Shown here: piece by piece, positions 5,836-39,483 of the stretch
Numbering within the stretch: position 1 is the stretch's first letter
Layout: every line of letters begins with the position of its first letter
Assembly: GCA_963754875.1 (NCBI GenBank)
Contig: CAVWHO010000008.1
Span: 379,066-443,065, forward strand
Length of the DNA stretch: 64,000 nucleotides
Reading direction: 5' to 3'
Source of the DNA: Nitrospirota bacterium
Lineage (GTDB): Bacteria; Nitrospirota; UBA9217
Position numbers and translations under genes: made by a program
Notes under the pieces: model-generated
Told to the model about the DNA's origin: nothing
Databases searched by the model: none
The model's input: the letters and a program-made list of their open reading frames with translations, nothing else

Positions 5836-5951
5836 GTTGCAATGAGAAAACTGAACATCATCGACGAACTGAAACCTATTTGCCAGATCTTGTGATGTTC
5901 TTCCCTGCATAAGTTGCCGTGATCCGCATGTCTTCCTGGTGATATAAACTC

Positions 5952-12278: not shown

Positions 12279-13184
12279 TTATTTACTTTCCACTTCCCTC
12301 ATGAAGATCTGGACGCGATTGTTGCCGCGATCGGCGATGAAAACATGACCCTTTCCATCAATACAAATATCAGCTGGATAGAAAAGTTCTCCTTCTTTCC
12401 ATCCCATCTTCAGCTTATTTCCTTGAAAAGAGCCATCTCTGCCAAAAACGACGACCCCTCCACCGTTCTGATCAACAAGATAGATGTTTTTCCGATCTAC
12501 GGCAAGAGCGGTTGGAAAGTTGACGTACGACTTCAATCCCGATACGAGCGGAGAAAAAACACCGGCATCGGGCGCTGCAGTATATAGCGAACCCGTCACG
12601 CTATTCAGAAGAAAAACCGTACCCTGTGGATCAACGGCCACGTCGGAGAAAAAGCCTCCAACCTGAGGATACTCTATCTGTTTCTGGAACTTCCCCTCCG
12701 GGCTCAGAATCAGTACCCGTGAGGATGCGATATCCAGAATATACAGATTATCTTTCGCATCGATTGCAAGACTTTTAGGAATCCACGATGGCCCGGGTCC
12801 AGGCAGGCCGAGCGCTTCGACATAACCCACGAACTCCCCTGTGGGTTTCAGGTGTACAATTCTATGCTGTCTTCCATCCAGCACGAAGATGTCCCCTTGG
12901 GTGTTTACTCGAATGCGCTGAGGATAGATGATTTGCGGAATTTTTATTTCCGTCCCCGCAACCATGACCTCGTCCTGCATGGTATATTGCTGGAGACGCC
13001 CGTGACCCGTATCGGCAACAGTGAGAACGGATTTATCGCTGCAGCCCACGCCCTCCGGCATGCTGATTCCCCCATCCTTTGCGTCTTTATAGAGGGACAC
13101 TTCATGTCTTAATGTCATCAGCTCAACGGCCTGCGCAGTAAAAGGAATCAGGAAGAGTATTATCATTGTTAAGATTTTCATCAT
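12279..13184 (-). CDS. Exported NHL-repeat beta-propeller protein (last gene of the nanowire cluster)
   Basis: Signal peptide MMKILTMIILFLIPFTAQA, repeats such as YPADICIDGKGHVFIADRGNNRVQIF, GAGAGG RBS. The ORF-track upstream extension overlaps the cytochrome gene. Confidence 0.88.
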   Translation of the reverse strand: MMKILTMIILFLIPFTAQAVELMTLRHEVSLYKDAKDGGISMPEGVGCSDKSVLTVADTGHGRLQQYTMQDEVMVAGTEIKIPQIIYPQRIRVNTQGDIFVLDGRQHRIVHLKPTGEFVGYVEALGLPGPGPSWIPKSLAIDAKDNLYILDIASSRVLILSPEGKFQKQIEYPQVGGFFSDVAVDPQGTVFLLNSVTGSLYTAAPDAGVFSPLVSGLKSYVNFPTALAVDRKNIYLVDQNGGGVVVFGRDGSFQGNKLKMGWKEGELFYPADICIDGKGHVFIADRGNNRVQIFMREVESK

Positions 13185-13188
13185 GGCA

Positions 13189-14478
13189 TCACCTCTCATG
13201 TGATGTGTGGCATTGCACACACATTTCCGTAGCTGTTGGATAGAGGAGCATATGTTGATTCGTTGTGCCGTGGGGGTCGTGGCAGCTTCCGCACTGGACG
13301 TAGGAGTTCGGATTCCGCGGGTCAATGACGCTTGCTCCTACAGGATGCGTAGAATGTTTTTTGAAATCATGACACGTTCCGCACAGCTCGAGCATGGTTG
13401 GTTGCACGAAGAGAAATACATTGTCGGAAGCATGCGGCGAATGACATGCGGTGCAGTCGCCGTCATTAACCGGCTGATGTTTTGTCGGAGATCGCTTCTG
13501 GCGCTCGATTGAATCTGCGTGACATTCACCGCAGAGGTCGGCCAGTTTTTTTCTCAGAAGCGGTTTTTCTTTTGATGCATGCGGGTTATGACAATGGAGA
13601 CATCCCGTCTTGTCCACGACAGGCCAATGGATCCGGTTCTTGTTGAGAACATCGTTGACCATATTGCTGTGGCACCCTTTGCACAACTCGATTCCGGCTT
13701 TTTTGGTTGCGAACGGTGTCGGCGAAGTTGGAGACTCATGGCACTGGCCGCACATCTTGCTGGCTACGGGCGGGTGAACGTTTGCATAGAGCACGCCCGC
13801 CCTGTCGGAACCGTGAGGATCATGGCAAGTCGTGCAACGTGCTTTTGCCACCGGATAGTTCATGTGCTGTCTTTTGAACGTCGGCACATCTGCCTTATGG
13901 CACGTAAGACAGAGCACCGGGACGGCTTTCTTCAACAAAGATACGGACTCTGCAGAGCCATGCGGGTTATGACAGTTAAGGCATCCTTTCTCGACAGGGC
14001 TATGCTTGAATTTTACGCTTTTTACCCTTTCAGCCATGTCCTTGTGGCACCCGAAACAGAGATCGTTCCCCGACGCCAAGAGGTTAAACCTGTATTTCGA
14101 AGCATGGGGATCGTGACACTTTACGCAATTCCCCTCCGACACGACTTTATGGGCACTAATAATTTTCTTGGGAATCACATTTTTATGGCACTTGAAACAT
14201 ATCTTGTTCGTGTCCGCTTCCAGCATCTTACCATAGGCAGACGCGTGGGGATTATGGCAGCCTGTGCATTCACCGGCCTTCACGGGCGTATGAACAAAAG
14301 GCTGCTTGAGCTTATCCTGAAAATCAACATGGCAAGTCAGGCAATTCTTACCTTGTGCCCCCGGCTTGAGCCGAAATTTATTTTGCTCGGCGCCCGCCGT
14401 CGCAGTGGCGCCAAAAACACATATTGCGATAAGCGCAAATAACTGCCAGTATCGCATCTTCACACCTTCTTTTTTCAT
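13189..14478 (-). CDS. 16-heme c-type cytochrome (doubled CxxCH repeat type)
   Basis: 16 CxxCH counted, in repeating H-P-V...CxxCHxPH...CxxCH units, with a signal peptide. Start is 14478 (AGGAG, ATGA overlap) or 14457. Confidence 0.95.
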   Translation of the reverse strand: MKKEGVKMRYWQLFALIAICVFGATATAGAEQNKFRLKPGAQGKNCLTCHVDFQDKLKQPFVHTPVKAGECTGCHNPHASAYGKMLEADTNKICFKCHKNVIPKKIISAHKVVSEGNCVKCHDPHASKYRFNLLASGNDLCFGCHKDMAERVKSVKFKHSPVEKGCLNCHNPHGSAESVSLLKKAVPVLCLTCHKADVPTFKRQHMNYPVAKARCTTCHDPHGSDRAGVLYANVHPPVASKMCGQCHESPTSPTPFATKKAGIELCKGCHSNMVNDVLNKNRIHWPVVDKTGCLHCHNPHASKEKPLLRKKLADLCGECHADSIERQKRSPTKHQPVNDGDCTACHSPHASDNVFLFVQPTMLELCGTCHDFKKHSTHPVGASVIDPRNPNSYVQCGSCHDPHGTTNQHMLLYPTATEMCVQCHTSHER

Positions 14479-16445
14479 CGTTTTTCTCCTATATGACAAT
14501 CCTCACACGACCGTGCAGCAAAAGGAGGATGGATATTTTCTTTGAACAGATTTGGGTCCTTCGAGCCATGCGGATCATGACAGGTCCGGCAATCTATGAC
14601 GGAAGCTTTGATGCCGATGTGGGCCTTCGCAAATGCACTGTCGTTCAGGTCATGGCAATCGCCGCATAATGCCGGGACCGGCTCGGTATTCAGTGCAGTT
14701 TCCTTTGAAAAATGCGGCAAATGGCATTGCAAACAATCGCCTGTTGCCGGGGGATGGGCCCGGCCGGCCTCAAGCTTTGACTTGATTTCTTTATGACAGA
14801 CCAAGCACAGATCGGGGCTTTGTGCCAGGAGAAGTTTGGACAGCTTCGACTTATGGGGGTTGTGGCACTTCGTGCACTGACCCGCCATCACCGGAGCATG
14901 CTTGCTAATCCCGGACTGGAGTCCTGTGTTTAACTTATCATGACACTGCATGCAGAGTCTATCCTGCTTGTCCACGATCATTCCGTCGATATCACTTGCG
15001 TGGGGATCATGGCAGATAAGACACTCTTTACTGGCGAATGGGGGATGGTTGGAGCCACCGACGGCTTCCTTCATGAAATCCCCGTGACACTGCAAACACA
15101 CCTCAGAACCCGGTGCTTTCAGAAGTTTTTCCTCAGACGACCCGTGAGGGTTGTGGCATTTGTTGCAGGCAGCCTGTTCAACGGGCTTATGGGTATTGGA
15201 TTTAGCGAATTTCCGTTCCTCATCAGTATGGCATGAATAGCATATCTTGTCCATCCTGTCGTTCAGCATGCCGACGAAGTTCGTACCATGAGGGTTATGG
15301 CAAGACAAGCACATGTCCTGAGCAAACGGCGGATGGACATCTTTAGCCTTGGTCAGTTCCTTCGTTTTTACATGGCAGGTGAAGCAGAGCTCCGAGCCTG
15401 TGACATTCAGGAGGTTCTTATTCTTTGCTGCATGGGGTGCATGGCATGACAAACATCCTTTCCCCTCGTTGAGTGCGGGATGTTGAAAGATCGGTTTCCC
15501 TTCCTGATGGCAGCTGTAACAAAGCTTGTTGCCTTTCTCCAAGAGTAGTTTTGGATTCTCCGAGGTATGCGCGCTATGACAGGAAAGGCACATGCCGCTT
15601 TTGAAGGGCATATGTTCCTCACTGCCGCCGCCCTTGAGTGTCGTTGCATCATGGCACTGCATGCAGAGATCTCCGCCGCTCTGGGTCGTTCCGAACGGCG
15701 TCTGTGACGTTGCTGGGTTATGACATGCATCGCAACTCATGGATACAAGGGGGTTGTGAACACTCGTTTTCAGGAGCTTCGGCTCAGACGATGAATGAGG
15801 GCTGTGACAGATCGAACAGCGTTTGCTGTCTACAGGGTATCCGCCATGCGCTTTTTTAAATGATGAGGCGCCGCTGTTATGGCAATCCAGGCAGAGAGCC
15901 GGGTCAGCCTTGACGAGAAGGTTATCCTGGTCAGAACTGTGGGGCACATGGCAGGCTGTACAACCGTCGGTCTTCAATACTTTATGGATGACTTTACCCT
16001 CGTAATTCTCCTTAGCGTGGCACTGGGTACAGACCGCCGTACCTTCCTCTTTGAGAAGATGTTTCCACGGGGAGGCATGGGGGTTGTGGCAATTTGTACA
16101 CAGCCCCTTCTGCACCGCTGTATGCACCTTTGCCTTGTCCAACCCTATTTTCCCTTTGTCGTGACATGTATAACAGAGAGCATTCCCGCGTTTCTTCAGG
16201 ATCAACGCGGGTACTCTGCCGTGCCGAAGGTGACAAGCTTCGCATTTTTTTTCTTTCACGACAGTGTGGATCTCTTTCATGCCGAAGTATTTGTCAGAAA
16301 ATTTTTTGTGGCAATCAAGACAGTCTTTCTGCGCAAATTTGAACTGAGCGGCCGCCGTACCAGCTAGAGCGATCGTGGCCAGCAGCAAAAATATGCCAAA
16401 TAGAGAAATTTTCATCTTTGAATGTATGGTAGACATGGTCCTCAA
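14475..16445 (-). CDS. 26-heme c-type cytochrome
   Basis: 26 CxxCH counted; signal peptide ending ALAGTAAA. Confidence 0.95.
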   Translation of the reverse strand: MRTMSTIHSKMKISLFGIFLLLATIALAGTAAAQFKFAQKDCLDCHKKFSDKYFGMKEIHTVVKEKKCEACHLRHGRVPALILKKRGNALCYTCHDKGKIGLDKAKVHTAVQKGLCTNCHNPHASPWKHLLKEEGTAVCTQCHAKENYEGKVIHKVLKTDGCTACHVPHSSDQDNLLVKADPALCLDCHNSGASSFKKAHGGYPVDSKRCSICHSPHSSSEPKLLKTSVHNPLVSMSCDACHNPATSQTPFGTTQSGGDLCMQCHDATTLKGGGSEEHMPFKSGMCLSCHSAHTSENPKLLLEKGNKLCYSCHQEGKPIFQHPALNEGKGCLSCHAPHAAKNKNLLNVTGSELCFTCHVKTKELTKAKDVHPPFAQDMCLSCHNPHGTNFVGMLNDRMDKICYSCHTDEERKFAKSNTHKPVEQAACNKCHNPHGSSEEKLLKAPGSEVCLQCHGDFMKEAVGGSNHPPFASKECLICHDPHASDIDGMIVDKQDRLCMQCHDKLNTGLQSGISKHAPVMAGQCTKCHNPHKSKLSKLLLAQSPDLCLVCHKEIKSKLEAGRAHPPATGDCLQCHLPHFSKETALNTEPVPALCGDCHDLNDSAFAKAHIGIKASVIDCRTCHDPHGSKDPNLFKENIHPPFAARSCEDCHIGEKR

Positions 16446-16456
16446 AATGGTCCTCC

Positions 16457-18235
16457 CTATTGATTATTTTCAGAACCTGCAATATAAATCTTGATATCAG
16501 CAGATTTCCTCAATTTTTGTATCCACTCTTCCAGAGACTTGCTCAGTGCGGATTTGAATACAATCGCCCGAATGTCCGCCTGAACCTGCTCGAAGGGTCT
16601 CTGCGTTGGCGGGATCACTTGCTGAACATGCAAAACATAATAGTCGCCTTGCGGACTTTCAAAGAGCCGGAAGTCGTCAGATCGAGCATCTGAAACGGCC
16701 GCCCTGACACCCTCTTCCAGTGAATCGATCGGCACTGGATTTTCATCAAAAGTAAGTAAGTCCTCGGTATTTGCAGACAGCTGGCCTTCGGCATTGGTCT
16801 TGATCCAGGCAAAGTCTGCGCCCTTTTTCAGCCTATCCAAAGCGGAAACAGCATCGTCCTTCTTACCGAACACCAAGCTGCGTATCTTCAGCGATTTCGC
16901 GGTCATGTACTCTCCGGCATGGTCCCGATAGTAGGTCCTCATTTCGTCCTCAGTCACATTAACATTGGGGACAAGAACATTCCCGATGAAAGCCCCGAAC
17001 AGGACGGATCGTTCATACTCCGTCATGATACTTTTATAGGCAGCCGTCTTGTCGAGCCCGCGTTTCAATGCCTCCGTATAAAACAGCTTTTTCTGCACGA
17101 GCTCCTCCAGCGTCTGCTGCTTAAGCGGGGCGAACTTATTGCGATCATAGTCCTTCACTCCATGGAACAGTTTATTCTCCAATGATTCGGACAGCTGCGC
17201 TACCAGGATCGGCTCCTCTCCCTTTATTTCAGCCACAATCCTTTGGTCTTTCATGAGTTTTTCGATACCGGGACCTTGTGGTCCGTAGTCCAGGCTCGTA
17301 AAAAGCTTTCCGTTCACTTTCGTATATTTTTTATACAATGCATTGTGATACTGTCTTAAGGCTTCTATCTTTTTATTTTCGAGTACCGACTGCCGGGCCT
17401 GCTCTTTCGCTTCGGAGCTTTCTTTAGTCTGTTTTTCCTCCAGCCGGAAGAAACCGAAGGCCGTTTTGCCACCCTTCGTAATCCTTCTGACAGAACTTAC
17501 CTCACCGGCTTTTATCGTGGACATTTCATTTACGAGTGCAGGCTCAAGATCGATCAATTTTAAGAACGTTCCTCCCTCCGTCCCTGTCGCCGTCTTGGCC
17601 TTAAGTGCTCCCGCAACGACATTGTCAAAGCTCTCGCCTCTTCGAATCGCATCTGAGGCTCTTTTCGCTTCCTTTTCACTCTTGAACAGCACATAGGTGA
17701 ATTTCACCTCCTGCACGGACGCTTGGTAAACCTTCTCTACTTCTTCGTCACTTGCTGTTACCGTTTTCGTAATCTCGTCCCGTAAGAGGCGTCTTAACGT
17801 AACATGTGAAAAATTATCAAGGTTGCTTTTTATTTCGGGAAGGTCGTGAAGACCGACAGCATTCGCCTCCTGAAGGATGAGCCTCGCATTGACCAGGTTC
17901 CCCAACAATTTCACCATATCCATTTTGGTTTTGGATGTGGCCGAGAGATCATCCTTCGATTCCACCATGTCTTTTTGATGGGTATCGGCAATGGCGTTTC
18001 TGAGATCTTCCAGGGTAATCGGCTCATTATTCACAACCGCGACCGCCACATCCGATCCAACAGAAGACAACAGAGGAATTTTCACCGAAACAAGGATTTT
18101 GCCTTCCTTTGTAACCGGCTTCAGTTCACTTCCTTTTTCTTCCCTGGGGGCCGTCTTCTGATCTGATGCAAAGCATGGCACAGCGGTCAGCAAAATGGCC
18201 AGCATGCTTGTTGATACGAGCAATCTCTTCTTCAT
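16457..18235 (-). CDS. Periplasmic SurA/PrsA-like chaperone with two parvulin-type PPIase modules (OscH-like by position)
   Basis: Signal peptide, VAVVNNEPITLEDL, two rotamase-like segments (RRGESFD, KKGADFAW) and C-terminal WIQKLRKSADIKIY. Confidence 0.85.
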   Translation of the reverse strand: MKKRLLVSTSMLAILLTAVPCFASDQKTAPREEKGSELKPVTKEGKILVSVKIPLLSSVGSDVAVAVVNNEPITLEDLRNAIADTHQKDMVESKDDLSATSKTKMDMVKLLGNLVNARLILQEANAVGLHDLPEIKSNLDNFSHVTLRRLLRDEITKTVTASDEEVEKVYQASVQEVKFTYVLFKSEKEAKRASDAIRRGESFDNVVAGALKAKTATGTEGGTFLKLIDLEPALVNEMSTIKAGEVSSVRRITKGGKTAFGFFRLEEKQTKESSEAKEQARQSVLENKKIEALRQYHNALYKKYTKVNGKLFTSLDYGPQGPGIEKLMKDQRIVAEIKGEEPILVAQLSESLENKLFHGVKDYDRNKFAPLKQQTLEELVQKKLFYTEALKRGLDKTAAYKSIMTEYERSVLFGAFIGNVLVPNVNVTEDEMRTYYRDHAGEYMTAKSLKIRSLVFGKKDDAVSALDRLKKGADFAWIKTNAEGQLSANTEDLLTFDENPVPIDSLEEGVRAAVSDARSDDFRLFESPQGDYYVLHVQQVIPPTQRPFEQVQADIRAIVFKSALSKSLEEWIQKLRKSADIKIYIAGSENNQ

Positions 18236-18333: not shown

Positions 18334-21300
18334 TTACCAGGTAGTCATCATCTTGACCGTACTGCGTACCATCTCCGCAACCATCGCGCTTGCCGTCTTG
18401 ATATTCCCCAATCCGAACAGGGTGACCCCATCGTCTCCTAGGCTTCGAGCTCTCTGAGGACCAGATGATCCTTTTACTGGTTTTTTCAATCAGCATCACG
18501 GAAAAAGTAACTTTCGGGCTCCTCCATTGTTCATCCCGATAGTCCAGGACTTTCCCCGTTAGGAATAGATCGGCATTGATATTTTCGATGAGGATATCGA
18601 TATCGGAAAGTGAAGCTCCTTCCTCCATGATGGTCCTTACGCTGAGAAGTTCCTGCCTCACTATAGCCGGATCGATTACGACAAAATCCTTCCGTTGCGC
18701 CAATTCTTTCACGAATTGCAGCATGACGACCTCTCCGGCGCCAGGTGTCTTACTTTGGTTGAAAAAAGGTATGGCCGCTATGGTGCGCCGTTTATCTCTG
18801 TTGATTATGCTCAGACTGTGTACTTTGTAGCGCCCGAGGGAGGCATTGGCAGGGCTCGACAGTTTCACATCCATCGCCTCAGCGGCCTCGACACCGTCAT
18901 CTCCTGGCATGAGAACAGTAATGATTGCACTTCGACTGCCCGCCTTGATTATAGCGGGATTCGGCGTGGCCGAGTAATCTAACGGTTTCTTCGTTGTACT
19001 ACTGATCGTAAACGGAATAATCACATCCTTGCCCGACAATGCCGACGATTCAATAGCAATAATTGCCGTTTTCGCTTCCCTGATGACGCGCTGATTTTCG
19101 GAAAGAAAGGATATTGTGGGCATGGGCGTGGTATTCACGATGGTATAGGTATGTGTTGTGACGCTTCCCAACACACTGTCGGCAGACTTCAACAGGCTTA
19201 CTTCGATGGTCTTGTTGTCATCGTAGATGCCGTGATTTACAATCTCAAGCTCGATGGTCTTTTCAGTCTCGCCCGGGGCGAAGGTCAGGCTGCTTCCCGC
19301 CATCGCGTAATCCTTCCCCTTGATTGCCGTCCCCCCGGTCACCGCGTACTCCACCGTCACCGGCTTGCCGCTCGCTGCGCCGAGCGCCACCTCGAACCGG
19401 GACTGCCCTACCTTGTCATCGCCCCGGGATTCCTTTCGGCTAAAGGACACCGTCGGCGCCGGATCGCTGTCGACGATGGTCACCGTGCTCTCTGTGCTCT
19501 TTCCCTGCGTCGCGTTCGTGGGGGCTCCCATGCTCACCACGACCGTCTTGTCGTCTTCGTTGATGCCGTTGTCCGTGACATCCACGGCAATCGTTGCGCT
19601 CTTTGTTCCCGCCTTGATCACGACCGGGCTCGCCGTAATCGTATAGTTGCCGGGAGTTTTCGCCGTTCCACTCACCTTGAACGGCACCGTCACGTCCTTG
19701 CCCGACAGGGCCGACAATTCGACAGCGATGGTCGCCGGTCCTCCGTTCTCCTTCGCCTGCTGGCTCGTTGACGTAAACGTCACTGCGGGCGCCGGGTCCG
19801 CATCAATGATGGCATAACTATGCATGGTCGTGCTTCCGAGAACGGCCCCTTTCGGATTTTTGAGGCCGACCTCAATGGTCCTGTTATCCGCATTCAGCCC
19901 GTCATCCCTGATCCCAAGCTCGATGGTCTTTACCGTTTCCCCCGGGGCAAAGGTCAGGGTCTGGGCACCGTCCTTCAGCGTGTAGTTCGTCTCGCGGACG
20001 GCGGTGCCACCCGTGACGGCATATTCTACCGTCGTCAACTTGCCGCTCGCTGCGCTTAGAGTCACCTCAAGCCGGGCGGGACTTACCTTCTCGTCCCCGT
20101 ACGAACTGGGGAGCGTGAATGACACCGTGGGCATGGGCGTGGTATTCACGATGGTATAGGTATGTGTTGTGACGTTTCCCAACACACTGTCGGCAGACTT
20201 CAACAGGCTTACTTCGACGGTCTTGTTGTCATCGTAGATGCCGTGATTTACAATCTCAAGCTCGACGGTCTTTTCAGTCTCGCCCGGGGCGAAGGTCAGG
20301 CTGCTTCCCGCCACCGCGTAATCCTTCCCCTTGATTGCCGTCCCCCCGGTCACCGCGTACTCCACCGTCACCGGCTTGCCGCTCGCTGCGCCGAGCGCCA
20401 CCTCGAACCGGGCCTGCCCTACCTTGTCATCGCCCCGGGATTCCTTTCGGCTAAAGGACACCGTCGGCGCCGGATCGCTGTCGACGATGGTCACCGTGCT
20501 CTCTGTGCTCTTTCCCTGCGTCGCGTTCGTGGGGGCTCCCATGCTCACCACGACCGTCTTGTCGTCTTCGTTGATGCCGTTGTCCGTGACATCCACGGCA
20601 ATCGTTGCGCTCTTTGTTCCCGCCTTGATCACGACCGGGCTCGCCGTAATCGTATAGTTGCCGGGAGTTTTCGCCGTTCCACTCACCTTGAACGGCACCG
20701 TCACGTCCTTGCCCGACAGGGCCGACAATTCAACTGCGATGGTCGCCGCTCCTCCGTTCTCCTTCGTCTGCTGGCTCGTTGACGTAAACGTCACTGCGGG
20801 CACCGGATCGCTGTCGACGATGGTCACCGTGCTCTCTGTGCTCTTTCCCCGCGTCGCGTTCGTGGGGACTCCCATGGCCATCACTACCGTCCGGGCCTCT
20901 TCGTTGATCTTATTGTCGACCGGGCTTACCATAATCGCCGCGCTTTTCGTTCCCGCCTTGATCATGACCGGGCTCGCCGTAATCGTATAGTTTCCGGGAG
21001 TTTTCGCCGTCCCGCTTACCGTGAACGGCACCGTCACGTCCTTGCCCGACGGGGCCGACAATTCGACAGCGATGGTCGCCGGTCCACCGTTCTCCTTTGC
21101 CTGCTGGCTCGCTGCAGTGAAAGCCACAGAAGGCATGGGTGTCGTATTCATGATAGTATAGCTATGCGTGGTTATCGCGCCTATCACGGCATTCTTTGCA
21201 CGTTTCAAGCTCACGACGACTATTTTATCGTCATTATTGATGCCATGATTAACAATACCCAGTTCTATGAATTTGTTCGTTTCGCCGGGGGCGAACGTCA

Positions 21301-24154
21301 GCGAATCTGTCTTGGCTGTATAATCTTTTCCGCTAATAGCCGTGCCACCTGTGAACGCGTACTCCACTGTTACCGGTTTTCCGCTCACTGCCCCGAGCGA
21401 CACCTCCAGCCGGGCCGGGTTCGTCTTCTCATCCCCGCTCGAAACCGCGTGCATGAACGCCACCGCGGGCATGGGCGTGGTGTTCACGATAGTATGGCTG
21501 TGCGTCGTAGCTCCCCCCAGTATGGCGTTTTTTGCGCTCTTCAGGCTCACGTCCACCGTCTTATTGTCGTCGTAGATCCCATCGTTCTTGATGTCGAGCT
21601 CAATCTCCTGTTTTGTCTCGCCCGGGGCGAAGGTCAGGCTGCTTCCCGCCATCGCGTAATCCTTCCCCTTGATTGCCGTCCCCCCGGTCACCGCGTACTC
21701 CACCGTCACCGGCTTGCCGCTCGCTGCGCCGAGCGCCACCTCGAACCGGGCCTGCCCTACCTTGTCATCGCCCCGGGATTCCTTTCGGCTAAAGGACACC
21801 GTCGGCGCCGGATCGCTGTCGACGATGGTCACCGTGCTCTCTGTGCTCTTTCCCTGCGTCGCGTTCGTGGGGGCTCCCATGCTCACCACGACCGTCTTGT
21901 CGTCTTCGTTGATGCCGTTGTCCGTGACATCCACGGCAATCGTTGCGCTCTTTGTTCCCGCCTTGATCACGACCGGGCTCGCCGTAATCGTATAGTTGCC
22001 GGGAGTTTTCGCCGTTCCACTCACCTTGAACGGCACCGTCACGTCCTTGCCCGACAGGGCCGACAATTCGACAGCGATGGTCGCCGGTCCTCCGTTCTCC
22101 TTCGCCTGCTGGCTCGTTGACGTAAACGTCACTGCGGGCGCCGGGTCCGCATCAATGATGGCATAACTATGCATGGTCGTGCTTCCGAGAACGGCCCCTT
22201 TCGGATTTTTGAGGCCGACCTCAATGGTCCTGTTATCCGCATTCAGCCCGTCATCCCTGATCCCAAGCTCGATGGTCTTTACCGTTTCCCCCGGGGCAAA
22301 GGTCAGGGTCTGGGCACCGTCCTTCAGCGTGTAGTTCGTCTCGCGGACGGCGGTGCCACCCGTGACGGCATATTCTACCGTCGTCAACTTGCCGCTCGCT
22401 GCGCTTAGAGTCACCTCAAGCCGGGCGGGACTTACCTTCTCGTCCCCGTACGAACTGGGGAGCGTGAATGACACCGTGGGCATGGGCGTGGTATTCACGA
22501 TGGTATAGGTATGTGTTGTGACGTTTCCCAACACACTGTCGGCAGACTTCAACAGGCTTACTTCGACGGTCTTGTTGTCATCGTAGATGCCGTGATTTAC
22601 AATCTCAAGCTCGACGGTCTTTTCAGTCTCGCCCGGGGCGAAGGTCAGGCTGCTTCCCGCCATCGCGTAATCCTTCCCCTTGATTGCCGTCCCCCCGGTC
22701 ACCGCGTACTCCACCGTCACCGGCTTGCCGCTCGCTGCGCCGAGCGCCACCTCGAACCGGGCCTGCCCTACCTTGTCATCGCCCTGGGATTCCTTTCGGC
22801 TAAAGGACACCGTCGGCGCCGGATCGCTGTCGACGATGGTCACCGTGCTCTCTGTGCTCTTTCCCTGCGTCGCGTTCGTGGGGGCTCCCATGCTCACCAC
22901 GACCGTCTTGTCGTCTTCGTTGATGCCGTTGTCCGTGACATCCACGGCAATCGTTGCGCTCTTTGTTCCCGCCTTGATCACGACCGGACTCGCCGTAATC
23001 GTATAGTTGCCGGGAGTTTTCGCCGTTCCACTCACCTTGAACGGCACCGTCACGTCCTTGCCCGACAGGGCCGACAATTCAACTGCGATGGTCGCCGCTC
23101 CTCCGTTCTCCTTCGCCTGCTGGCTCGTTGACGTAAACGTCACTGCGGGCACCGGATTCGTATTAATAATGGTATAAGTATGCACCGCGGTACGCCCTAA
23201 TAGCGCATTCGTCGGGTTCTTGAGGCTTACCTCGATAGTCTTGCTGTCCGCATTCAGACCGTCATTAAGGATGTCTATATTTATGTCCTTGACAGTCTCG
23301 CTGGGTGCAAATGTCAATGTCCCGTCCTGCAATTTATACTTGATGCCGCGGACGGCGGTACCGCCCGTTACAGCATACTCCACGGTCACTGGCCGAGCAT
23401 TAACCGAACTGAGCGCTACCTCGAGTCTCGCAGGGCTTGTCTTATCAGTGCCGCTGGAACGCTTCAGAACAAAATTTACGATATTCTCACGAAAGTCCGT
23501 TCCCAGGCTCGGGGAGCGGTACACGGACCGCGGTTTGAAATCGATCCTTCCGCCCTCGCCATCGGCCGTTTTTCCCGCCGCAAACGTTTCCAGGGACCCT
23601 GAAAGCTGACGGACTGCTTTCTGCAACAGTACTTTGGGGTCATGAATCACGCCGAGTCCAAGAATCCCGGGAGAATCGTCACCTGCCAGGCCCACGCTAT
23701 CGGCCCACAATACACGAGGATTATCTGTTGCGGCCAGGAGCCTGACTGCCATGGAAATCCGGGGAACGCCGTCTGCATTGTAGGACTCCACCGTGGCAAG
23801 GAGAATGGCGTCGGCCCCAACCTCTCTTTTGAATGCCTCAGCAGTAGCTGCATCCACCCCCATTGAAGGGCGAAAACGATGATTCGACAGGATCGATTTA
23901 ATCGGCGCTTCATCGAGGACGTCGACCCGCTGCGATTTCAATTGTTGCGTCAGTGCTTGCCGGATATCTTCTTCAGGAATGGCCGAATTACTCCTGTTTT
24001 CAATAGGAAGGACGACGATGCGAAGTCTGGTTGCGTCGTCTGGCACGATCTTCCCTGCCGGTCCTTTCACCATCGAACACCCGGTCAGTAACACCAAACC
24101 GGTAAAAAAAACGGCTGCAATCGTTCTATTTAAAAAGCTTTTTGATAAGATCAT
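18334..24154 (-). CDS. Giant lipoprotein: CsgG-like domain + 14 Calx-beta-like repeats + CsgG-like domain (OscG-like by position), with an apparent frameshift near 18445
   Basis: Lipobox LLTGC; IVVLPIENRS and IAAIPFFNQS domains; repeats with VTVEYAVTGGTA..DY..LTFAPGET. The shifted frame gives LGDDGVTLFGLGNIKTA..TTW* (stop 18334), mirroring AGDDSPGILGLG in domain 1. Confidence 0.85.
19113..23156. repeat. Near-identical intragenic repeats: 1011-bp three-domain unit and a larger block duplicated at 2349-bp offset
   Basis: TGGTATAGGTATGTGTTGTGACG recurs at 19141, 20152 and 22501. Shadow ORFs repeat at 19151/20162/22511 and 19820/22169. Confidence 0.95.
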
Positions 24155-24695
24155 CGACAGCCTTTTCCGTTATATCGTTCATAAGCGTTCCTCCTCCGCC
24201 GAAAAGCCGGTCCGTGACGCCTATGCCGCCCTGAGTTGAGGAAGCAGACCATATAATTCTGCCCGTCTGCGTTTCAATCATCTGCAGGTTCAAGGAAATA
24301 GCGTTCGAAGCGGCGGAGCCGGATCTCACTTCGCCATACTCTTTCACGACGCCCGTTATCACTGCATCCACCTTAACAACGCTTGAGAACTTTATTGCCT
24401 CATCGGTGGAGGGTGCCGTCGGATCGGCCAATCCCAGTCGCGTGATACCCCGCTTCACTTCACCGACAGGGATTACGTAGAAAGCGCCGGTAGCCAAAAG
24501 CCTGGTCATTAAAACTTCCCTCACCCGGTCACTAGCGCTCTGCTCCTTCGACTGGTTAGCAAGGGGCATAACCGCAACATTCTGGATCACCCCAAAGTCC
24601 ATGTTCGGATCCCGAAAGACGCCGGCACTTTTGTGAGCGCATGCAGTCAGCGAAATAGCCATTAATAGCAGCACAATAGTTCTCTTGACATTCAT
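24126..24695 (-). CDS. Small CsgG-like lipoprotein (OscF-like by position)
   Basis: Lipobox SLTAC; VAVMPLANQS, VDAVITGVVKEYG and LQMIETQTGRIIWSAS motifs. Confidence 0.85.
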   Translation of the reverse strand: MNVKRTIVLLLMAISLTACAHKSAGVFRDPNMDFGVIQNVAVMPLANQSKEQSASDRVREVLMTRLLATGAFYVIPVGEVKRGITRLGLADPTAPSTDEAIKFSSVVKVDAVITGVVKEYGEVRSGSAASNAISLNLQMIETQTGRIIWSASSTQGGIGVTDRLFGGGGTLMNDITEKAVDDLIKKLFK

Positions 24696-24715: not shown

Positions 24716-26986
24716 TTAAAAAAATAGCATCAACGAAGCGGTCGTGATCCTCGTCGTAGACTGCTGCACATCGGTGATGTCATCCTCCGTTACATAGGCA
24801 ACTTGTGCATAGGACCGCCCTGCCATAAGCCATCGGATACTCGATGTCAGCACCCTGGTGGTAGAATTGCTTTCTGTCATCAGTCCCTCGTTGTAGGAGA
24901 TGCCTAACTGGAGTTTCCCCCCTTGGAAAGGTGACCAACTCACCCCGTAACTCTTTGTCCTGTTGCGTCGGTATGCCGATGAAGTTGTCCCCATGGACCC
25001 GGCGAGGTACAGGGTATTGAACGGGGAATACGCCAGACTCATATCCTCCTGATCGACCGGCGTTGTCGAATCCGGTAATCCGCCGCCCGACTGTTCAATT
25101 ACCGAATGGGAGGTCGAATAGGTAATCGTCATTGTTTTTAGAGGTGCCAAACTGGCTCCGAAAGTATAGAGCGAAGTGGTACTCTTCCTTTTGTCCTCAG
25201 GGACCTGAACACTAACCCCCCCGTTTAGATAGATAGAAAAATTCCGGTACAGATCCGCATTATTGTTCAGAAATACAGAATTTGTACTAGTACGACCGAC
25301 AAATGATTCGTGGGTCGAGCCGCTGTATATAAGACTGTCTCTCAATGTGCTCAGAGGAACTGCTTGGAGTGATGTATTATATGCATAGGTGACCGCGTTC
25401 CCCTCCGTTGGATCGAAGGTATCCGACCGTTCAGCATGCGCCAGACCGGAGAAAATATTGTTGAATCGATGGGAGACTGACAGGCCATTCGTAATTGATG
25501 AATTCCTTGCCGTTGAATTCCCGTTATTTGTGCTTTGATTCAAATAGGTAAAATCGTAAAACAAGGCAGGACTGCTCAAAAGCATGACCCGGGTGCCTAC
25601 GGCGGAATTCTCGATGGTCCCCGCACTCGTTCTTGTCATGCCTGTTGCGGTAGACTGATTCAGGAATGCCTTGAGTTCGGTCACATATATGCCCGGATAG
25701 AGCAACGCTTCTCCGACTGGAGAAAGAGGACTCACGACGACCTTTATGTATTGCGTCGTCACGTCCGGGATGGCCAGCTCAAATCGGCCGACTCCCAGCA
25801 GTGGGGCATAGGGCTCGTAGGTGGCCGGCATGACCGAAGTATACAAAACCCAGGTCTGGTTATCCGAGCTCGTGTAGATATCCATCTTAAAGGAGTTGGG
25901 CACTGTCGGATTATCGCTCAGATAGGCCGGGGAGCCGGTATTATTGACGGAATATACCCACAGCTCAAGATTGTTCAGCTCCGATGCAGTCCCGAACCTG
26001 ATTCCGATATTGCGTGGTGCGGTGTCCAGCGGCCATGCTGAAGACCCGATATTGATTGCATTGTTCATGGTTCCTTGCACATCGTTGTCTATCAACCCCG
26101 GAAGCGAATGGAGCGAAATATTTTCGGGGACCGTGTTGCTGACAAAAAGGCCGTCAAAGGCGAACACAGGCGTAAGTATTTGTCCGGATGCCCCCGTTGT
26201 CATGAAGTCGGTCGAGACAAGGGAAGCATAATAGCTTGCCGAAAATGAAACCCGGCCGTCAAAAAAAGCATCACCATAAGCGACCCGCCCGCTGTTCGTT
26301 ACCGTCTTCGTCTCCGTATCGTTGACCTTGTCCCGGGCATCAACGTAGTGCCCGTCATATGTCGTGGAGAGGTTTTTCCAGTCATACCGCAAACGCAGCC
26401 ACCCGTCATCGGTTACTGTATTCTGACTCATATGCTCCTTATCGTAGGAAAGAGTTTGGATCGCTCTTAGGTCCAACGTCGGCAGAGATTCAGGCATCCA
26501 TCGAAGGTAGCCGCTATAGCTCTCATTTATGGTCGTCGTTTTCGGCGAGCCTGCTACTCCCGTTTCGGTAATCATCGAATTATAGTTCCCTGATGCGGTG
26601 TACAAAGGGGTTTTCATCGTAAGATCGACATACGGTCTTTCTAGTGTAGTAGTGGATGAGATCTTTGACGCATCAGTTTTATCGGTGATATCGGTTCTGG
26701 TCCTCTGGAGAAGGCCGGAAGCATACAACCGGAGGTTTGGAGACAATAATTTATCAAGGATGAGATTGTATTCGTCAACGAATGAATTAATATCGGAGTT
26801 GGAAGCAGTGCCTGTGGAATCCTTGGAAGCGGTATCAAGATGAGTGTACGTCAACCCCACATGACCACTCAGTTCATCAGCCAGGGCCGGCCGAAGCACA
26901 ATCCCCGGAAAAAGTACCGTCCATAAGCACCCTAGAAAACAACAGGCCATCCATCCGTTTTGGTTATGTTGTCCCGAGAACCCCAT
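24716..26986 (-). CDS. Predicted outer-membrane beta-barrel protein with central insertion domain (OscE-like by position)
   Basis: Signal peptide, amphipathic Thr/Ser/Tyr-rich strands, C-terminal Phe. Central segment YTSSDNQTW..TTQYIKVVV. Confidence 0.75.
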   Translation of the reverse strand: MGFSGQHNQNGWMACCFLGCLWTVLFPGIVLRPALADELSGHVGLTYTHLDTASKDSTGTASNSDINSFVDEYNLILDKLLSPNLRLYASGLLQRTRTDITDKTDASKISSTTTLERPYVDLTMKTPLYTASGNYNSMITETGVAGSPKTTTINESYSGYLRWMPESLPTLDLRAIQTLSYDKEHMSQNTVTDDGWLRLRYDWKNLSTTYDGHYVDARDKVNDTETKTVTNSGRVAYGDAFFDGRVSFSASYYASLVSTDFMTTGASGQILTPVFAFDGLFVSNTVPENISLHSLPGLIDNDVQGTMNNAINIGSSAWPLDTAPRNIGIRFGTASELNNLELWVYSVNNTGSPAYLSDNPTVPNSFKMDIYTSSDNQTWVLYTSVMPATYEPYAPLLGVGRFELAIPDVTTQYIKVVVSPLSPVGEALLYPGIYVTELKAFLNQSTATGMTRTSAGTIENSAVGTRVMLLSSPALFYDFTYLNQSTNNGNSTARNSSITNGLSVSHRFNNIFSGLAHAERSDTFDPTEGNAVTYAYNTSLQAVPLSTLRDSLIYSGSTHESFVGRTSTNSVFLNNNADLYRNFSIYLNGGVSVQVPEDKRKSTTSLYTFGASLAPLKTMTITYSTSHSVIEQSGGGLPDSTTPVDQEDMSLAYSPFNTLYLAGSMGTTSSAYRRNRTKSYGVSWSPFQGGKLQLGISYNEGLMTESNSTTRVLTSSIRWLMAGRSYAQVAYVTEDDITDVQQSTTRITTASLMLFF

Positions 26987-27000
26987 TCTCCTGTTCTATC

Positions 27001-28413
27001 CTATCGTTCACCCATCATGGCCACCCATGAAGGAGAACCACTGACATCAATATCGGAAATGCTTTTTCCGCTGATCAGATTGACGACCGTGAGGACCTTC
27101 CGGTCGGGAATAAGCATATAGAGATTATCATTATCGTTATCGATCGTCATGAAATTTACCCATCCCTTCGTCGGGATGTATTCTACAGGAGTAACCGCAA
27201 GTGGGTCATACACCGTGACCACTGAGTCATATTTTTTACCCACGTAAATGCGATCAGTCCGGGTATCCACCTTGATAGAGCTCACTCCCAGTCCTATAAA
27301 ATCCCGACGCACCAGAGAGAAGGACTCGGGGTTGATCGTATAAAGGTACGGATAAGATGCGTGGATTACATAGAGCCGGTCCCCGTTGCGATTGAACTGT
27401 CCTCTCAAAGGTTCGGGCCCTGTCGCAATCGTTCCCATGACTGCCCTGCCGGCGATATCGATAACCGATATATTGTCGGAATGGTTGTTAAAGACATAAG
27501 CTTTCCTGCCGGTTTTTTCGATCAGAATGGAGCATGGCCGGTTACCTACGGGGATCCTGGTTACCTCCATCCGAAGTCCGGTGTCAATGATGCTTACCAT
27601 ATTGGAACCGGAATCCACCGCCAACAGTGTGCGTCCGTCCGGCGTGAGGACCAGTTCTTGGGGTTCATCTCCCCGGATCAGCACGATCCTGTCCAGGACA
27701 GTCCCGTCTGCGACGTCGATCACCTCAATTGCGTCTTCATCGCTCAATGCCGCATATGCCATCTGATGCGTTTGGTCAACAACCATGCCTCGGGGGCCGG
27801 CTCCCGTAGCGATTACCCCTATTGCCTCCATTTTCACCTTATCGAACACCGTGATCGTATTCAAACCAACGTTCGTAACATAGCCGGTAACTCCAGGGAC
27901 GGGAGTCGGAGGGGTGTATATGAAAAACGCCGGACTGAAATGGTATCCGTCAGGTATGGATTCACTAAATTTTAATTTGAGGGAAAGCACATATGCCTTT
28001 TTCCGCTCCACCTTGAACATAAATTCCCTCTTGCTCGGCGCCTCAGGGACCAGGAGAGCGGCTTCGCCGTTCGCCGTTTCGAGCGAGGCTTTCTTGGTCT
28101 GGAAAAAGAATCCCTGGTAGGATCCCACCGGCAACCGGCCCTGTGCAATCAACCGCTGTCTTGCCATATCGTTTTTATTAAAATCGCTCACCAGGAGCGC
28201 AAGCGGGAATGCGACGCCGTCGTCCCGCACAGCCGAGATCCCTTCAAAAGAAAATTTGAGCCGCTCATCCGGCTTCTCAAATGGCTGGACATAGAGAAAC
28301 ACTTCCCCTTCATCCTCAAGCGCTGGCTCAGTTTTTAGCGGGAGCGATTGACATCCTGTAACTACCAGCAAGGCAACAAAAAGAATTTTTTTTATCCAGG
28401 CAGCCGTCTTCAT
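27001..28413 (-). CDS. YVTN/YncE-type beta-propeller lipoprotein (OscD-like by position)
   Basis: Lipobox VVTGC; GYVTNVGLNTITVFD and IPVGNRP repeats; ATGA overlap with the upstream cytochrome stop. Confidence 0.87.
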   Translation of the reverse strand: MKTAAWIKKILFVALLVVTGCQSLPLKTEPALEDEGEVFLYVQPFEKPDERLKFSFEGISAVRDDGVAFPLALLVSDFNKNDMARQRLIAQGRLPVGSYQGFFFQTKKASLETANGEAALLVPEAPSKREFMFKVERKKAYVLSLKLKFSESIPDGYHFSPAFFIYTPPTPVPGVTGYVTNVGLNTITVFDKVKMEAIGVIATGAGPRGMVVDQTHQMAYAALSDEDAIEVIDVADGTVLDRIVLIRGDEPQELVLTPDGRTLLAVDSGSNMVSIIDTGLRMEVTRIPVGNRPCSILIEKTGRKAYVFNNHSDNISVIDIAGRAVMGTIATGPEPLRGQFNRNGDRLYVIHASYPYLYTINPESFSLVRRDFIGLGVSSIKVDTRTDRIYVGKKYDSVVTVYDPLAVTPVEYIPTKGWVNFMTIDNDNDNLYMLIPDRKVLTVVNLISGKSISDIDVSGSPSWVAMMGER

Positions 28414-29699
28414 GGGAGAACTCCTGTGTGACACTTATGGCAGAGCGTATCCTGATTGAGGGCGAATCGACTTTCTGTTATTCCGTCATAGGCCATTTGT
28501 GCTTCAAGTTCGGTGCGTCCCTGCCCATAGGGTTGATAGGGTTGGCCTTGCTGCGCATACAATCCGTTGGAAACGATGAAGTCCGTTGTCGTATTCCATC
28601 GCGTAGCCCCGTCCCAACCCGAAGCATGCGCCCGGTGGCACGTGAGACACATCACCTGGGCGTTTACGGAATCCGGTCCGACGAGATAGGAATCATCGTT
28701 CTTCGCATGGGATTTGAGCACGGCATAGCTGGCGGTTCCCTCTTCAAAGGGGACGAGGGAAAGGTACGACATGGTCGAGATCCCGGTGAGATCGCCCGTT
28801 TTAAGGTAAGCGTTATAGTTGCCGCTGTCCGTGAAACCGAGCTTGGCAATGCTTCCTACGGGATGAATTGTCGCTGTTGTCGATGTCGGGGAGCTGAAAA
28901 TCTTGTGCATCGTCGTATGGCAGTTCTGACACCACTCGGACATTCCCGACCCATAAGCCACCCGGGTCTGCGTTACCGCCTCGGATCTGTTGTACACATC
29001 CGGCGCAACCGCAGCAGGCGGGTCGTACGTAAAAGGAATGCTGCCAGGAAGGGATTTAGGCTGATAATTTTCCCCACCCAACATCCGATAGACGCCTACG
29101 GAATAACCGATTTGCGGGTCGGGACTGCTTGCATAGGAACCCGAGCTTTGAATTGCGCTGCCGCTCGTGGTGATCGTACCATCGACATTTCTGCGATATT
29201 GGCCGTGGGGATCGTGACAGCTGATACAAGCGAGGCTCGTCGACGGATAGGTCCCCTCGGGAGCCGTTAAATTTGTCACATCGGCCATATAGGAATAATC
29301 GGCAGCCGTGATGTTGTGGCCGTGTCTTTCCCCGTGGCTGTAGAGCGGCGCCTGCGTTGCATCGGGGACCCAGAAATAGTCCTTTTTGAGCCATCCAAAA
29401 TCACCGCCCGGGGTAATCTGCCGGGGCGGCAGACCGGGGAGCAAATCGGAGGAAGCGGTACTCACAAAGAAATAGGTCGGGCCGACGGCTCCCGCTCGCT
29501 CGTGGCAATTGAGGCAGACCGAACTGGCATCAGAGGCGATTAAGAGGCTTTTCGAGGACAGATCAGAACCATTATGCATGGAGTGGCAGGCATCGCAAGG
29601 ACCAACGCCGCCATTGTGAAAAGCAAAGACTGCCCCTGCAAACGTAAGCATGACCGTGAGGAGCGTCAGTGCAACGAGTGCCGTTTTTCGGAACTTCAT
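28410..29699 (-). CDS. OmcS-family hexaheme cytochrome c, second paralog
   Basis: 6 CxxCH; mature start FHNGGVGPCDACHSMH; TPGGDFGWLKK, GMSEWCQNCH and CLTCHRAHASG motifs. Start codon uncertain (29699-29756). Confidence 0.92.
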   Translation of the reverse strand: MKFRKTALVALTLLTVMLTFAGAVFAFHNGGVGPCDACHSMHNGSDLSSKSLLIASDASSVCLNCHERAGAVGPTYFFVSTASSDLLPGLPPRQITPGGDFGWLKKDYFWVPDATQAPLYSHGERHGHNITAADYSYMADVTNLTAPEGTYPSTSLACISCHDPHGQYRRNVDGTITTSGSAIQSSGSYASSPDPQIGYSVGVYRMLGGENYQPKSLPGSIPFTYDPPAAVAPDVYNRSEAVTQTRVAYGSGMSEWCQNCHTTMHKIFSSPTSTTATIHPVGSIAKLGFTDSGNYNAYLKTGDLTGISTMSYLSLVPFEEGTASYAVLKSHAKNDDSYLVGPDSVNAQVMCLTCHRAHASGWDGATRWNTTTDFIVSNGLYAQQGQPYQPYGQGRTELEAQMAYDGITESRFALNQDTLCHKCHTGVLP

Positions 29700-29822
29700 C
29701 AGTAGGTAAAAATTCCTCATAACCATCTGCGTGCCGCATACCAATCGCGAGCGCATTACTATACCATTGAATTGTTCACGAGAGAATAAAAAAATGCATG
29801 AGAATATATATTATAATGGCAG

Positions 29823-29889: not shown

Positions 29890-31125
29890 TTAGTCTTTTG
29901 CATGGCACTTGTTGCAGAGAGACCGCTGGTAGCTGGAAAAGGACGCCACGGTCCTGCCATAGTAGGCAGCCTGGGCTTCCGCGGCGGTCTGGCCGCGAGA
30001 TACCTGCGCGAACGCGCTGTTGGTGACCATAAATTCGCTGTCGTTAAACCATCTCGTCATGTGATCGAAACCTGAGGCATGTGCACGATGGCAGCTGAGG
30101 CACATGACCTGCGAATTTGAATCCGCACCAGTATCGGGTGCGCCCAGAGCTTTGGCCTGGGTTCTAAGCGTCACCAGTGCATTCAGCTGGCCGCCTGTGC
30201 CGCCTACTTCGAACGGGACCAGTGAGTTGTATGCCGAAGCGACAATGCCGGTCATGTTGCCCGACATCTTATAGGCATTATAATTGTTGATCTGGTCGGT
30301 CGTGAACTTACCATCAGTGCTGACCGGGTGCGAATGCTTGGTGGAGGTGCCTGAAAGCATGTCAGGATGGCAGGTCGCGCACCACTCGGACATACCGGAG
30401 CCGTAGGCAACGCGAAGCTGCGTCGAGTCGGTTTCCGCAACGTTGTAGGTGCCCGGTGCAACGGCAACAGGCGGATTCGCCGAGAAGGTAACACCACGTG
30501 AGGCATCGCCGAGTCCGCGGAGCAGACGATACACACCGATTGCCTGGCCGGCAGCCGGCGTGGCGCTGGTGTTGTACGAGCCGGACCCGATGATCGGCGC
30601 CCCGCCCGTAGAAAAGGTCAAATTCGACATAATACGGTTACGGCCGTGGTTGTCATGGCAGCTGTTGCAGGCGAGATTCCCGGCTGAGAACGTGCCACCA
30701 GGCGCTGTCGTGTTGATCGTATCCGGGCCAAAACCAAAGTCGCCCGCAACGATGTTGTGACCATGTGTAGAGCCAAGGTCGCTGTTTGCGGCGTTGCGTA
30801 CGACAAAGAAATAATCTTTCTTCAACCATGCGAAGTCGCCGCCGGGGGTATAGTTAAGAGGAGCGACGCCCGCGGCCGGTAAGGGCCACGTCAGTTCGTG
30901 ATAGCTGCCTGTTGCCGCGTTTGCGTGGCAGGACAAGCAGGTGGAACTCGGATCCCCGCCAACCAGCAGCGCGTTCGTGGTTGCACCATCTTGGCCATCG
31001 TGAATATTGTGACAACCCGTACACTCGGCGACACCGCCGCTATGGAACGCAAAACTTACGGTGCAGAGGCCGAATATAAAGGCGACCGCAACAGCAATGA
31101 CAAAGCTTAATTTAACAATCTTCAT
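29890..31125 (-). CDS. omcS: OmcS-like hexaheme nanowire cytochrome
   Basis: Mature N-terminus FHSGGVAECTGCHNIH, GHNIVAGD, GMSEWCATCH, CLSCHRAHASGFD and C-terminus YQRSLCNKCHAKD, all as in Geobacter OmcS; 6 CxxCH; AGGAGG RBS before ATG 31125. Confidence 0.92.
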   Translation of the reverse strand: MKIVKLSFVIAVAVAFIFGLCTVSFAFHSGGVAECTGCHNIHDGQDGATTNALLVGGDPSSTCLSCHANAATGSYHELTWPLPAAGVAPLNYTPGGDFAWLKKDYFFVVRNAANSDLGSTHGHNIVAGDFGFGPDTINTTAPGGTFSAGNLACNSCHDNHGRNRIMSNLTFSTGGAPIIGSGSYNTSATPAAGQAIGVYRLLRGLGDASRGVTFSANPPVAVAPGTYNVAETDSTQLRVAYGSGMSEWCATCHPDMLSGTSTKHSHPVSTDGKFTTDQINNYNAYKMSGNMTGIVASAYNSLVPFEVGGTGGQLNALVTLRTQAKALGAPDTGADSNSQVMCLSCHRAHASGFDHMTRWFNDSEFMVTNSAFAQVSRGQTAAEAQAAYYGRTVASFSSYQRSLCNKCHAKD

Positions 31126-31150
31126 GAACATCCTCCTATTAAATGATGTG

Positions 31151-31229
31151 CTCCGGCAGCCCGGCCGTCCTGAGTTCAGGACCCGTAGACTTTGTGTCCC
31201 CACCTTGCGATGGGTTTACCCGTTCGGAG
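31151..31229 (-). ncRNA. GEMM-I (c-di-GMP-I class) riboswitch aptamer in the omcS leader
   Basis: Minus strand CTCCGAACGGGTAAACCCATCGCAAGGTGGGGACACAAAGTCTACGGGTCCTGAACTCAGGACGGCCGGGCTGCCGGAG: P1 CTCCG/CGGAG, P2 with GCAA tetraloop, GACACAAAG junction, P3 and conserved 3' TGCCG. Confidence 0.9.
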
Positions 31230-33761: not shown

Positions 33762-33858
33762 CCTCACGAGCGTGTTGACATTTCCCCCTTTGTCCCTGGT
33801 AGACCCCGGGCCTGGCGCCTCTTTTGCGCTCCCTCCCCCTGGCGGAAAGCACTCTGCT

Positions 33859-36882: not shown

Positions 36883-36907
36883 GGTTACCCTCTCCTCCCT
36901 GATGCCA

Positions 36908-37729: not shown

Positions 37730-37952
37730 AAGGCCCCTTCTGAAGTACGATTGCTCTCGCTTCCCCTCGGTTATTTAAAGCTTATCAGGAATACAGTCAA
37801 TTCAGCAGCATTTAGCCATTTTAAGACAGATGGTAATAATGTTATTTATTTCTTCAGGAGAATCCTGTACCGCTATGAGCATTTTCAACGACAGCGTCAC
37901 TTGACAATTCATCAAGCATGCTCGGAACCTCACTCTTTATCAGACATGCGTG

Positions 37953-39449: not shown

Positions 39450-39483
39450 GGTATACAACAACCCCTAACATCTCCAGAAAAGG

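Follow-up and report, generated by a model that had tools for sequence, protein, structure and literature searches.

The locus and its oscG-like gene

The DNA analysed here (the window) is a stretch of 64,000 nucleotides from a Nitrospirota bacterium of the UBA9217 lineage (GenBank assembly GCA_963754875.1, contig CAVWHO010000008.1, positions 379,066 to 443,065). It holds a cluster of genes resembling the osc genes of Geobacter sulfurreducens, one of which, an oscG-like gene, encodes a predicted lipoprotein with 14 Calx-beta repeats inserted into the second of its two PelC-like domains. The parts of this gene are listed below.

18334..24154, minus strand: oscG-like gene, 1939 residues if the base at ~18444 is an error and 1957 residues (to 18281) as assembled
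24077..24154, minus strand: signal peptide and lipobox LLTG-C (Cys26), from the sequence
23564..24028, minus strand: PelC-like domain 1 (about residues 43-197), profile and fold match
23486..23539, minus strand: first strand of domain 2 and entry linker (residues 206-223), hhalign 99% and superposition on PelC
18800..23485, minus strand: 14 Calx-beta repeats (residues 224-1785), identity matrix and Pfam
18334..18799, minus strand: body of PelC-like domain 2, last ~35 codons in another frame as assembled
18444..18444, no strand: surplus base causing a frameshift, absent from X1, X2 and X3 contigs

As assembled, the open reading frame runs from an ATG at 24154 to 18281 on the minus strand. One surplus base at ~18444 shifts the last ~35 codons into another frame, and when it is left out the product ends at 18334, in a second frame that reads as the conserved C-terminal end of the family. 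The end that the original prediction gave to the gene, 18334, is thus the stop of the conserved frame, although the assembled frame continues past it. The base at ~18444 is absent from five contigs of runs X1, X2 and X3 (two studies; X5 has no coverage there), and a second surplus base at ~31834, which splits a neighboring propeller gene, is likewise absent from X1-X3 contigs (X4 has no contig there). Because both bases are missing from these contigs, they are probably single-base assembly errors. Runs X1-X3 contain relatives rather than the identical strain, and the ~18444 base may be a strain-specific mutation.

Contigs also bridge both junctions of the insert (X1 contig #7 and X3 #22; X1 #3 and X2 #11 and #12), and therefore the Calx-beta insert is not the read chimera that the original prediction had allowed for. 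The broader view that the gene is an assembly artefact or dead draws on the frameshift near its end and on the array itself, which no contig of the runs spans, such that the count of 14 repeats comes from this assembly alone. This view is largely refuted and scarcely credible: the junctions are bridged in two studies, the ~18444 base is missing in all three covering runs, the surplus base nearby behaves alike, and intact arrayed homologs are known, one of them (P0154) with 14 repeats.

The Calx-beta array and its calcium ligands

Thirteen of the 14 repeats are 111-114 residues long and the last has 107. A pairwise identity matrix gives the unit order X-A-B-C-A-B'-D-A'-A-B-C-A-B-E, in exact agreement with the original prediction, which had also recognized the lipobox (residues 22-26), a lipoprotein signal by which lipidation is predicted. 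Copies of A are 98-100% identical, those of B 96-98% and those of C 100%, while A' and B' stand at 79-81% and 82%. The Calx-beta assignment holds as well, with the Pfam family (PF03160) scoring 530 bits (E 6e-162) on the protein and 13 of the 14 repeats passing the curated cut-off. A genome-wide profile scan found no Calx-beta match elsewhere in the genome.

The array contains a 1616-bp duplication, 98.2% identical and offset by 2349 bp. Between its copies 23 codons differ, 11 silently and 12 non-silently, and 18 of them are clustered in one patch. This codon pattern fits a recent duplication plus recombination.

Known counterparts of the repeats include the Calx-beta domains of NCX exchangers (the array matches NCX1 CBD12, E 1.7e-11) and the Ig-repeat extenders of adhesins such as MpAFP region II, SiiE and LapA, which likewise are tandem ~112-residue beta-sandwiches with recent internal duplication. 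No NCBIfam adhesin family matches the protein, the Pfam cut-offs are passed only by Calx-beta and LpoB, and neither a distal ligand-binding tip nor an RTX or type I secretion region was detected in it, the C-terminus being a PelC-like domain. That the Thr-rich repeats are a glycosylation target is a guess.

The original prediction pictured a Ca2+-stiffened stalk. We scored acidic residues at nine positions of NCX1 CBD1 that we take to be Ca2+ ligands, in a numbering that we likewise assume. The A and C units are acidic at five of the nine, including the terminal D-x-D, and the B, B', D and X units at only one to three; a relative, P0069, retains seven to eight. The D-x-D ligand pair is kept at 7 of the 13 inter-repeat junctions. 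Judged from these residues, the Ca2+ ligands of the window's array are partly eroded, and Ca2+ stiffening is plausible at only about half of the junctions, which does not sustain a stalk stiffened throughout.

A tandem of PelC-like domains with the array inside the second

PelC, of the PelBC exopolysaccharide export system (PDB 9h80, 5t10, 5t11, 5t0z), is the best match of both terminal domains by sequence and by fold, over the whole domain. The original prediction had instead proposed a CsgG-like secretion channel. CsgG shares the alpha/beta core, but it fits worse (root-mean-square deviation 4.2-6.1), a ~154-residue OscG domain having to be aligned across ~203 CsgG residues. Each CsgG subunit contributes two long membrane-spanning hairpins. 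A model of the plain homolog P0002 has no long membrane hairpins (its longest strands have 10-11 residues and all lie in the core), such that OscG is predicted to lack the means to form its own barrel, and the barrel appears to be supplied by the neighboring OscE. TraT, a surface-exclusion lipoprotein with its own helical membrane barrel, is a weaker match than PelC. Differences from PelC are nevertheless evident: OscG is a tandem of two domains accompanied by a separate paralog, OscF; its gene lies among cytochrome, chaperone and propeller genes rather than in a pel operon; the OscE barrel is predicted to have 28 strands and not 16 as in PelBC; and PelC carries no Ig-like arrays.

The array had been placed between the two domains. 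Two terminal domains do flank it, but alignment and modeling put its start ~15 residues inside domain 2. OscF aligns with OscG domain 2 starting at the OscF cysteine (hhalign 99%), residues 206-223 align with the segment directly after the lipid-bearing cysteine of OscF and PelC, and residues 206-375 of the model can be superposed on PelC 19-172, beginning with the lipid-bearing cysteine. On these alignments domain 2 begins upstream of the array, which follows its first strand. In all 20 Calx-bearing proteins examined the array begins at the identical site with one unit type, and in all 16 complete ones it ends with the other.

We also folded domain 1 and the body of domain 2 as separate chains, using the 5-repeat relative P0032. 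The pair scored 0.82 (best control 0.14), with at least 56% contact agreement between runs and a partner predicted local distance difference test (pLDDT) value of at least 71; of 157 solved complexes, 116 pass the mark set for this score, as do 2 of 215 mismatched pairs. This prediction supports binding of domains 1 and 2 to each other. The simplest geometry would then be a loop with both array ends on a ring of such domains. Ig-like domains measure 4-4.5 nm each, and because the array is inserted in a domain 2 loop and the two domains are predicted to bind, its reach would be about half the rod length, at most 25-30 nm. In this it would differ from the Ig-repeat adhesins, its array sitting within a loop and being anchored at either end.

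The ~55-nm spacer of the original prediction is disfavored by the same geometry. In its most explicit form, the array would put domain 2 that far from the lipid anchor, or let it pair with domain 1 of another chain and so link rings or cells. The short linkers between repeats do suggest an extended chain, a two-domain insert may not close a tight hairpin, and the complex prediction is blind to pairing in cis versus in trans. Yet arrayed members conserve the first strand of domain 2, which remains proximal to the insert; binding between the two domains is predicted; and the MBG and PKD-like arrays of other homologs precede domain 1, such that domains 1 and 2 remain adjacent there. We consider this arrangement quite improbable.

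The surrounding gene cluster

The genes around oscG, all on the minus strand, are as follows.

31358..32333, minus strand: beta-propeller gene upstream of the hexahemes, split at ~31834, open reading frame list and profile match
29890..31203, minus strand: second OmcS-like hexaheme cytochrome, 43% identical to the one at 28410..29756
28410..29756, minus strand: OmcS-like hexaheme cytochrome with 6 CXXCH motifs, matching PDB 6ef8 (E 1.7e-124)
27001..28434, minus strand: oscD-like beta-propeller protein, 477 residues, profile match
24716..26986, minus strand: oscE-like outer-membrane barrel, 28 predicted strands with an inserted domain at residues ~268-446, structure model
24126..24695, minus strand: oscF-like single PelC-like lipoprotein, 189 residues, overlapping the oscG start, profile and PelC match
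16457..18235, minus strand: oscH-like SurA/PPIase chaperone, profile match
14475..16445, minus strand: oscI-like 26-heme cytochrome, profile match and heme motif count
13189..14499, minus strand: oscJ-like 16-heme cytochrome, profile match and heme motif count
12279..13325, minus strand: NHL beta-propeller protein, last gene of the eight-gene block, profile match

In reading order, therefore, two hexahemes are followed by a propeller, a 756-residue protein, the 189-residue lipoprotein, the oscG-like protein, the chaperone, the 26-heme and 16-heme cytochromes and the NHL propeller. The propeller gene at 31358..32333 sits in what we take to be the oscA position. The oscG-like gene lies between the oscF-like and oscH-like genes, in the block after the OmcS-like hexaheme, and its domain 1 is 37-47% identical to the plain protein at the equivalent cluster position. 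Plain two-domain homologs occupy that position at Geobacteraceae loci (L095, L097-L099 and L101). From gene order and the homology of both terminal domains, we identify the window gene as OscG, as the original prediction had proposed.

In the Geobacter system, the block GSU2500-2493 is linked to OmcS secretion (PMC12977616), within which a secretion role has been proposed for OscE, OscF and OscG and a folding role for OscH (PMC13194489), and GSU2497 appears as an annotated lipoprotein (PMC3495685). With oscC being GSU2501, oscI GSU2495 and oscJ GSU2494, counting genes within GSU2500-2493 leads us to infer that GSU2497 is the G. sulfurreducens OscG. This protein and that of the window occupy the same slot of the eight-gene block, behind OmcS-like hexahemes, and both have two homologous domains and a lipoprotein signal, whereas the window protein carries ~1560 residues of Calx-beta sequence and Geobacteraceae loci only 50-69 extra residues between the domains. 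By analogy with the osc cluster, an export role may be presumed in the window's lineage.

The best fold match of the oscE-like barrel is chain B of the Mtr complex. Its inserted domain, ~180 residues and rich in beta structure, follows strand 11 and is predicted by strand parity to be extracellular; no Pfam or NCBIfam family matches it. The cluster is flanked by genes for GT family 2, fused MFS/spermidine-synthase and membrane-TPR proteins (window positions 1417-7766 and 32841-40677). The TPR protein at 32841-33869 (minus strand) resembles the C-terminal part of the 604-residue membrane-TPR type at 5952-7766 and is possibly truncated.

Distribution of arrays among relatives

Without an insert, the oscG product has ~360-450 residues, and Geobacteraceae oscG loci measure 430-452 residues from stop to stop, which bears out the statement that the Geobacter counterpart is only a few hundred residues long. 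An order-level survey covered 64 genomes, all of one family, and found the gene in 21. Thirteen of these have Calx arrays, three have MBG arrays and five are plain (G030 being scored plain from two partial contigs). The Calx counts are 14 (G000), at least 2 (G007), 2 (G008), at least 4 (G016), 25 (G024), 4 (G061), 20 (G062), 20-21 (G065), at least 3 (G067), 8 (G069), 20 (G079), 7 (G081) and 5 (G087), arrays of 20 or more repeats all being frameshift-broken as assembled. Within one genus, copy number thus takes the values 0, 2, at least 2 and 14, and in the family it reaches 25. An envelope-width ruler should not allow such a spread, and for this reason the suggestion that the array guides the filament through a thick envelope is disfavored. 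Besides its clustered copy with 20 repeats, genome G062 has another oscG (L107:6504-9053) with 4 Calx repeats; no osc neighbors of the latter were detected within 18 kb.

Across bacteria, the best 150 of 531 homolog clusters (E up to 1e-30) comprise 90 plain, 42 with PKD-like domains, 13 with Calx, 4 with MBG and 1 other. Homologs therefore carry the repeats routinely within the family, but not across bacteria. All 59 clusters with Calx, PKD-like or MBG arrays have them just before the first core strand of a domain. PKD-like arrays in this set have 1-10 domains and Calx arrays 2-14, a two-domain insert being the commonest minimal Calx form. A search restricted to long proteins returned 33: 17 PKD-like, 13 MBG and 3 Calx. 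An MBG or PKD-like array follows the signal peptide and precedes the first core strand of domain 1, which corresponds to where Calx arrays are inserted in domain 2, and this comparison shows convergence of three array types on an equivalent OscG site.

Of 69 loci from named genomes 68 could be classified, and none of these has a Calx array. One long PKD-like array occurs in a full cluster (L079), a single PKD-like domain in eight loci, and 50-69 extra residues between the domains in five (Geobacteraceae or Desulfuromonadales). At L095, L097, L099 and L101 an insert of 66-69 residues lies just before domain 2, and the N-termini resemble cleavable signal peptides with no clear lipobox. The protein at L103:9611-11308 has one PKD-like domain and a 118-residue Cys/Asp-rich insert between domains with a DxDxDG-like motif. 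Those at L089:8862-11489 and P0029 bear a ~280-residue C-terminal extension, a fourth kind of appendage, with precomputed PF00261 and PF24125 matches in P0029. Weak domain 1 matches (E 1e-4 to 1e-6; L016 in G038, L014 in G047, L012 in G029, L013 in G017 and L015 in G033) are probably other PelC/LpoB-like proteins.

On a core tree (FastTree, 169 rows), the Calx label needs 6 changes and the PKD label 28, and a single Calx clade is weakly rejected. This patchiness, together with the recent near-identical duplications and the eroded Ca2+ ligands in the window's lineage, would suit a near-neutral accordion, in which a Calx-beta pair in a tolerant loop grew by unequal recombination and has no selected function. 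We give this little probability, since the 59 arrayed clusters among the best 150 have three unrelated domain types placed at an equivalent site, long arrays are kept despite a cost of 150-300 kDa per chain, and the paralog OscF has no arrays: 58 of its 66 hit reading frames have 159-254 residues, and the 8 longer ones are upstream read-through or OscG cross-hits.

A candidate surface collar at the OscE barrel

The reading that we favor, at a probability of roughly 0.45, is that OscG forms a surface collar, a ring of PelC-like domains at the OscE barrel from which a Calx-beta arm loops out, likely away from the cell. OscE would be the membrane pore, and OscG, predicted to have no membrane hairpins, would pack its two PelC-like domains side by side as ring subunits. 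Since domain 1 is predicted to bind domain 2 even as a separate chain, both array ends would return to the ring. The insertion site may be on the membrane-distal face, since the strand before it is extended and begins at the position of the lipid-bearing cysteine. The arm is presumably dispensable for export, most homologs having no array, and its length would change through recombination between near-identical units. Junctions of A and C type may be Ca2+-stiffened, with those of B type acting as hinges. Least certain are that the ring is on the outer face, where several arms would make a collar around the nanowire base, and that this collar braces the nanowire or keeps the export site in contact with minerals, matrix or other cells.

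For the arm, the extracellular side of the membrane is only slightly favored, the two sides being nearly even. Free length variation among close kin, the adhesin-type domains and the restriction of arrays to OscG favor the surface, and we count in the same direction the TraT ring, which is extracellular (PMC11733297). Several points weigh against a surface collar. First, PelC, the closest solved relative, is a periplasmic ring beneath its barrel (PMC12141448). Second, 3 of 13 Calx representatives (P0130, P0147 and P0154) have no lipobox cysteine, nor do P0061 and L079, and the default location of such arrayed proteins would be the periplasm. Third, no surface-export signal was identified, and the four secretins of the window's genome only leave a route possible. 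Fourth, the Pfam scan of the protein found no adhesive tip domain. Finally, the complex run took P0032 rather than the window protein, with an alignment mostly of uninterrupted homologs, and its score may reflect likeness to a PelC ring and does not distinguish cis pairing from domain swapping.

Several of these points would suit a looped arm that projects into the periplasm from a PelC-type ring beneath the outer membrane, where it would be a scaffold or fence leaving space for OscH and the two multiheme cytochromes (26 and 16 hemes), or would tie the pore to peptidoglycan. We hold this periplasmic placement to be tenable, if tentative. PelC, a periplasmic protein, gives the best sequence and fold match, and non-lipidated arrayed members exist. 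Conversely, a range of 0-25 domains among close kin suits no fixed compartment, loops of 20-25 domains on every subunit would be hard to house, and Calx-beta, MBG and PKD-like domains are mostly known from surface proteins.

Implications for nanowire export

The surface collar can be extended to a modular one, equipped repeatedly and in several phyla with swappable Calx-beta, MBG and PKD-like arms of up to 25 domains that would grip minerals or partner cells where the wire exits, possibly cross-linking the rings of neighboring cells by domain swapping. We regard this fuller version as rather unlikely as it stands. The relatives, with 0-25 Calx domains or two other repeat types, nevertheless suggest that the nanowire pore bears an exchangeable attachment.

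A search whose coverage did not extend to the primary report of Shen et al. 2025 and its supplements found no paper that connects Calx-beta to OmcS or describes a long OscG. Secretion and anchoring of OmcS nanowires are still called speculative (PMC12307469, PMC13712944). Against this background, OscEFG is recast as a PelBC-like barrel plus ring instead of a CsgG-like channel, and the Ig-like arrays, present in roughly 40% of the closest OscG clusters, make up a layer of variation that the same search found in no paper. The natural insertions mark an OscG loop that tolerates up to ~2800 extra residues. This loop is a ready site for an epitope or electron microscopy tag in G. sulfurreducens, the array is a large landmark for cryo-electron tomography, and either would settle on which side of the outer membrane OscG lies. 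If the modular surface collar is real, attachment and electron export would be united in one machine.

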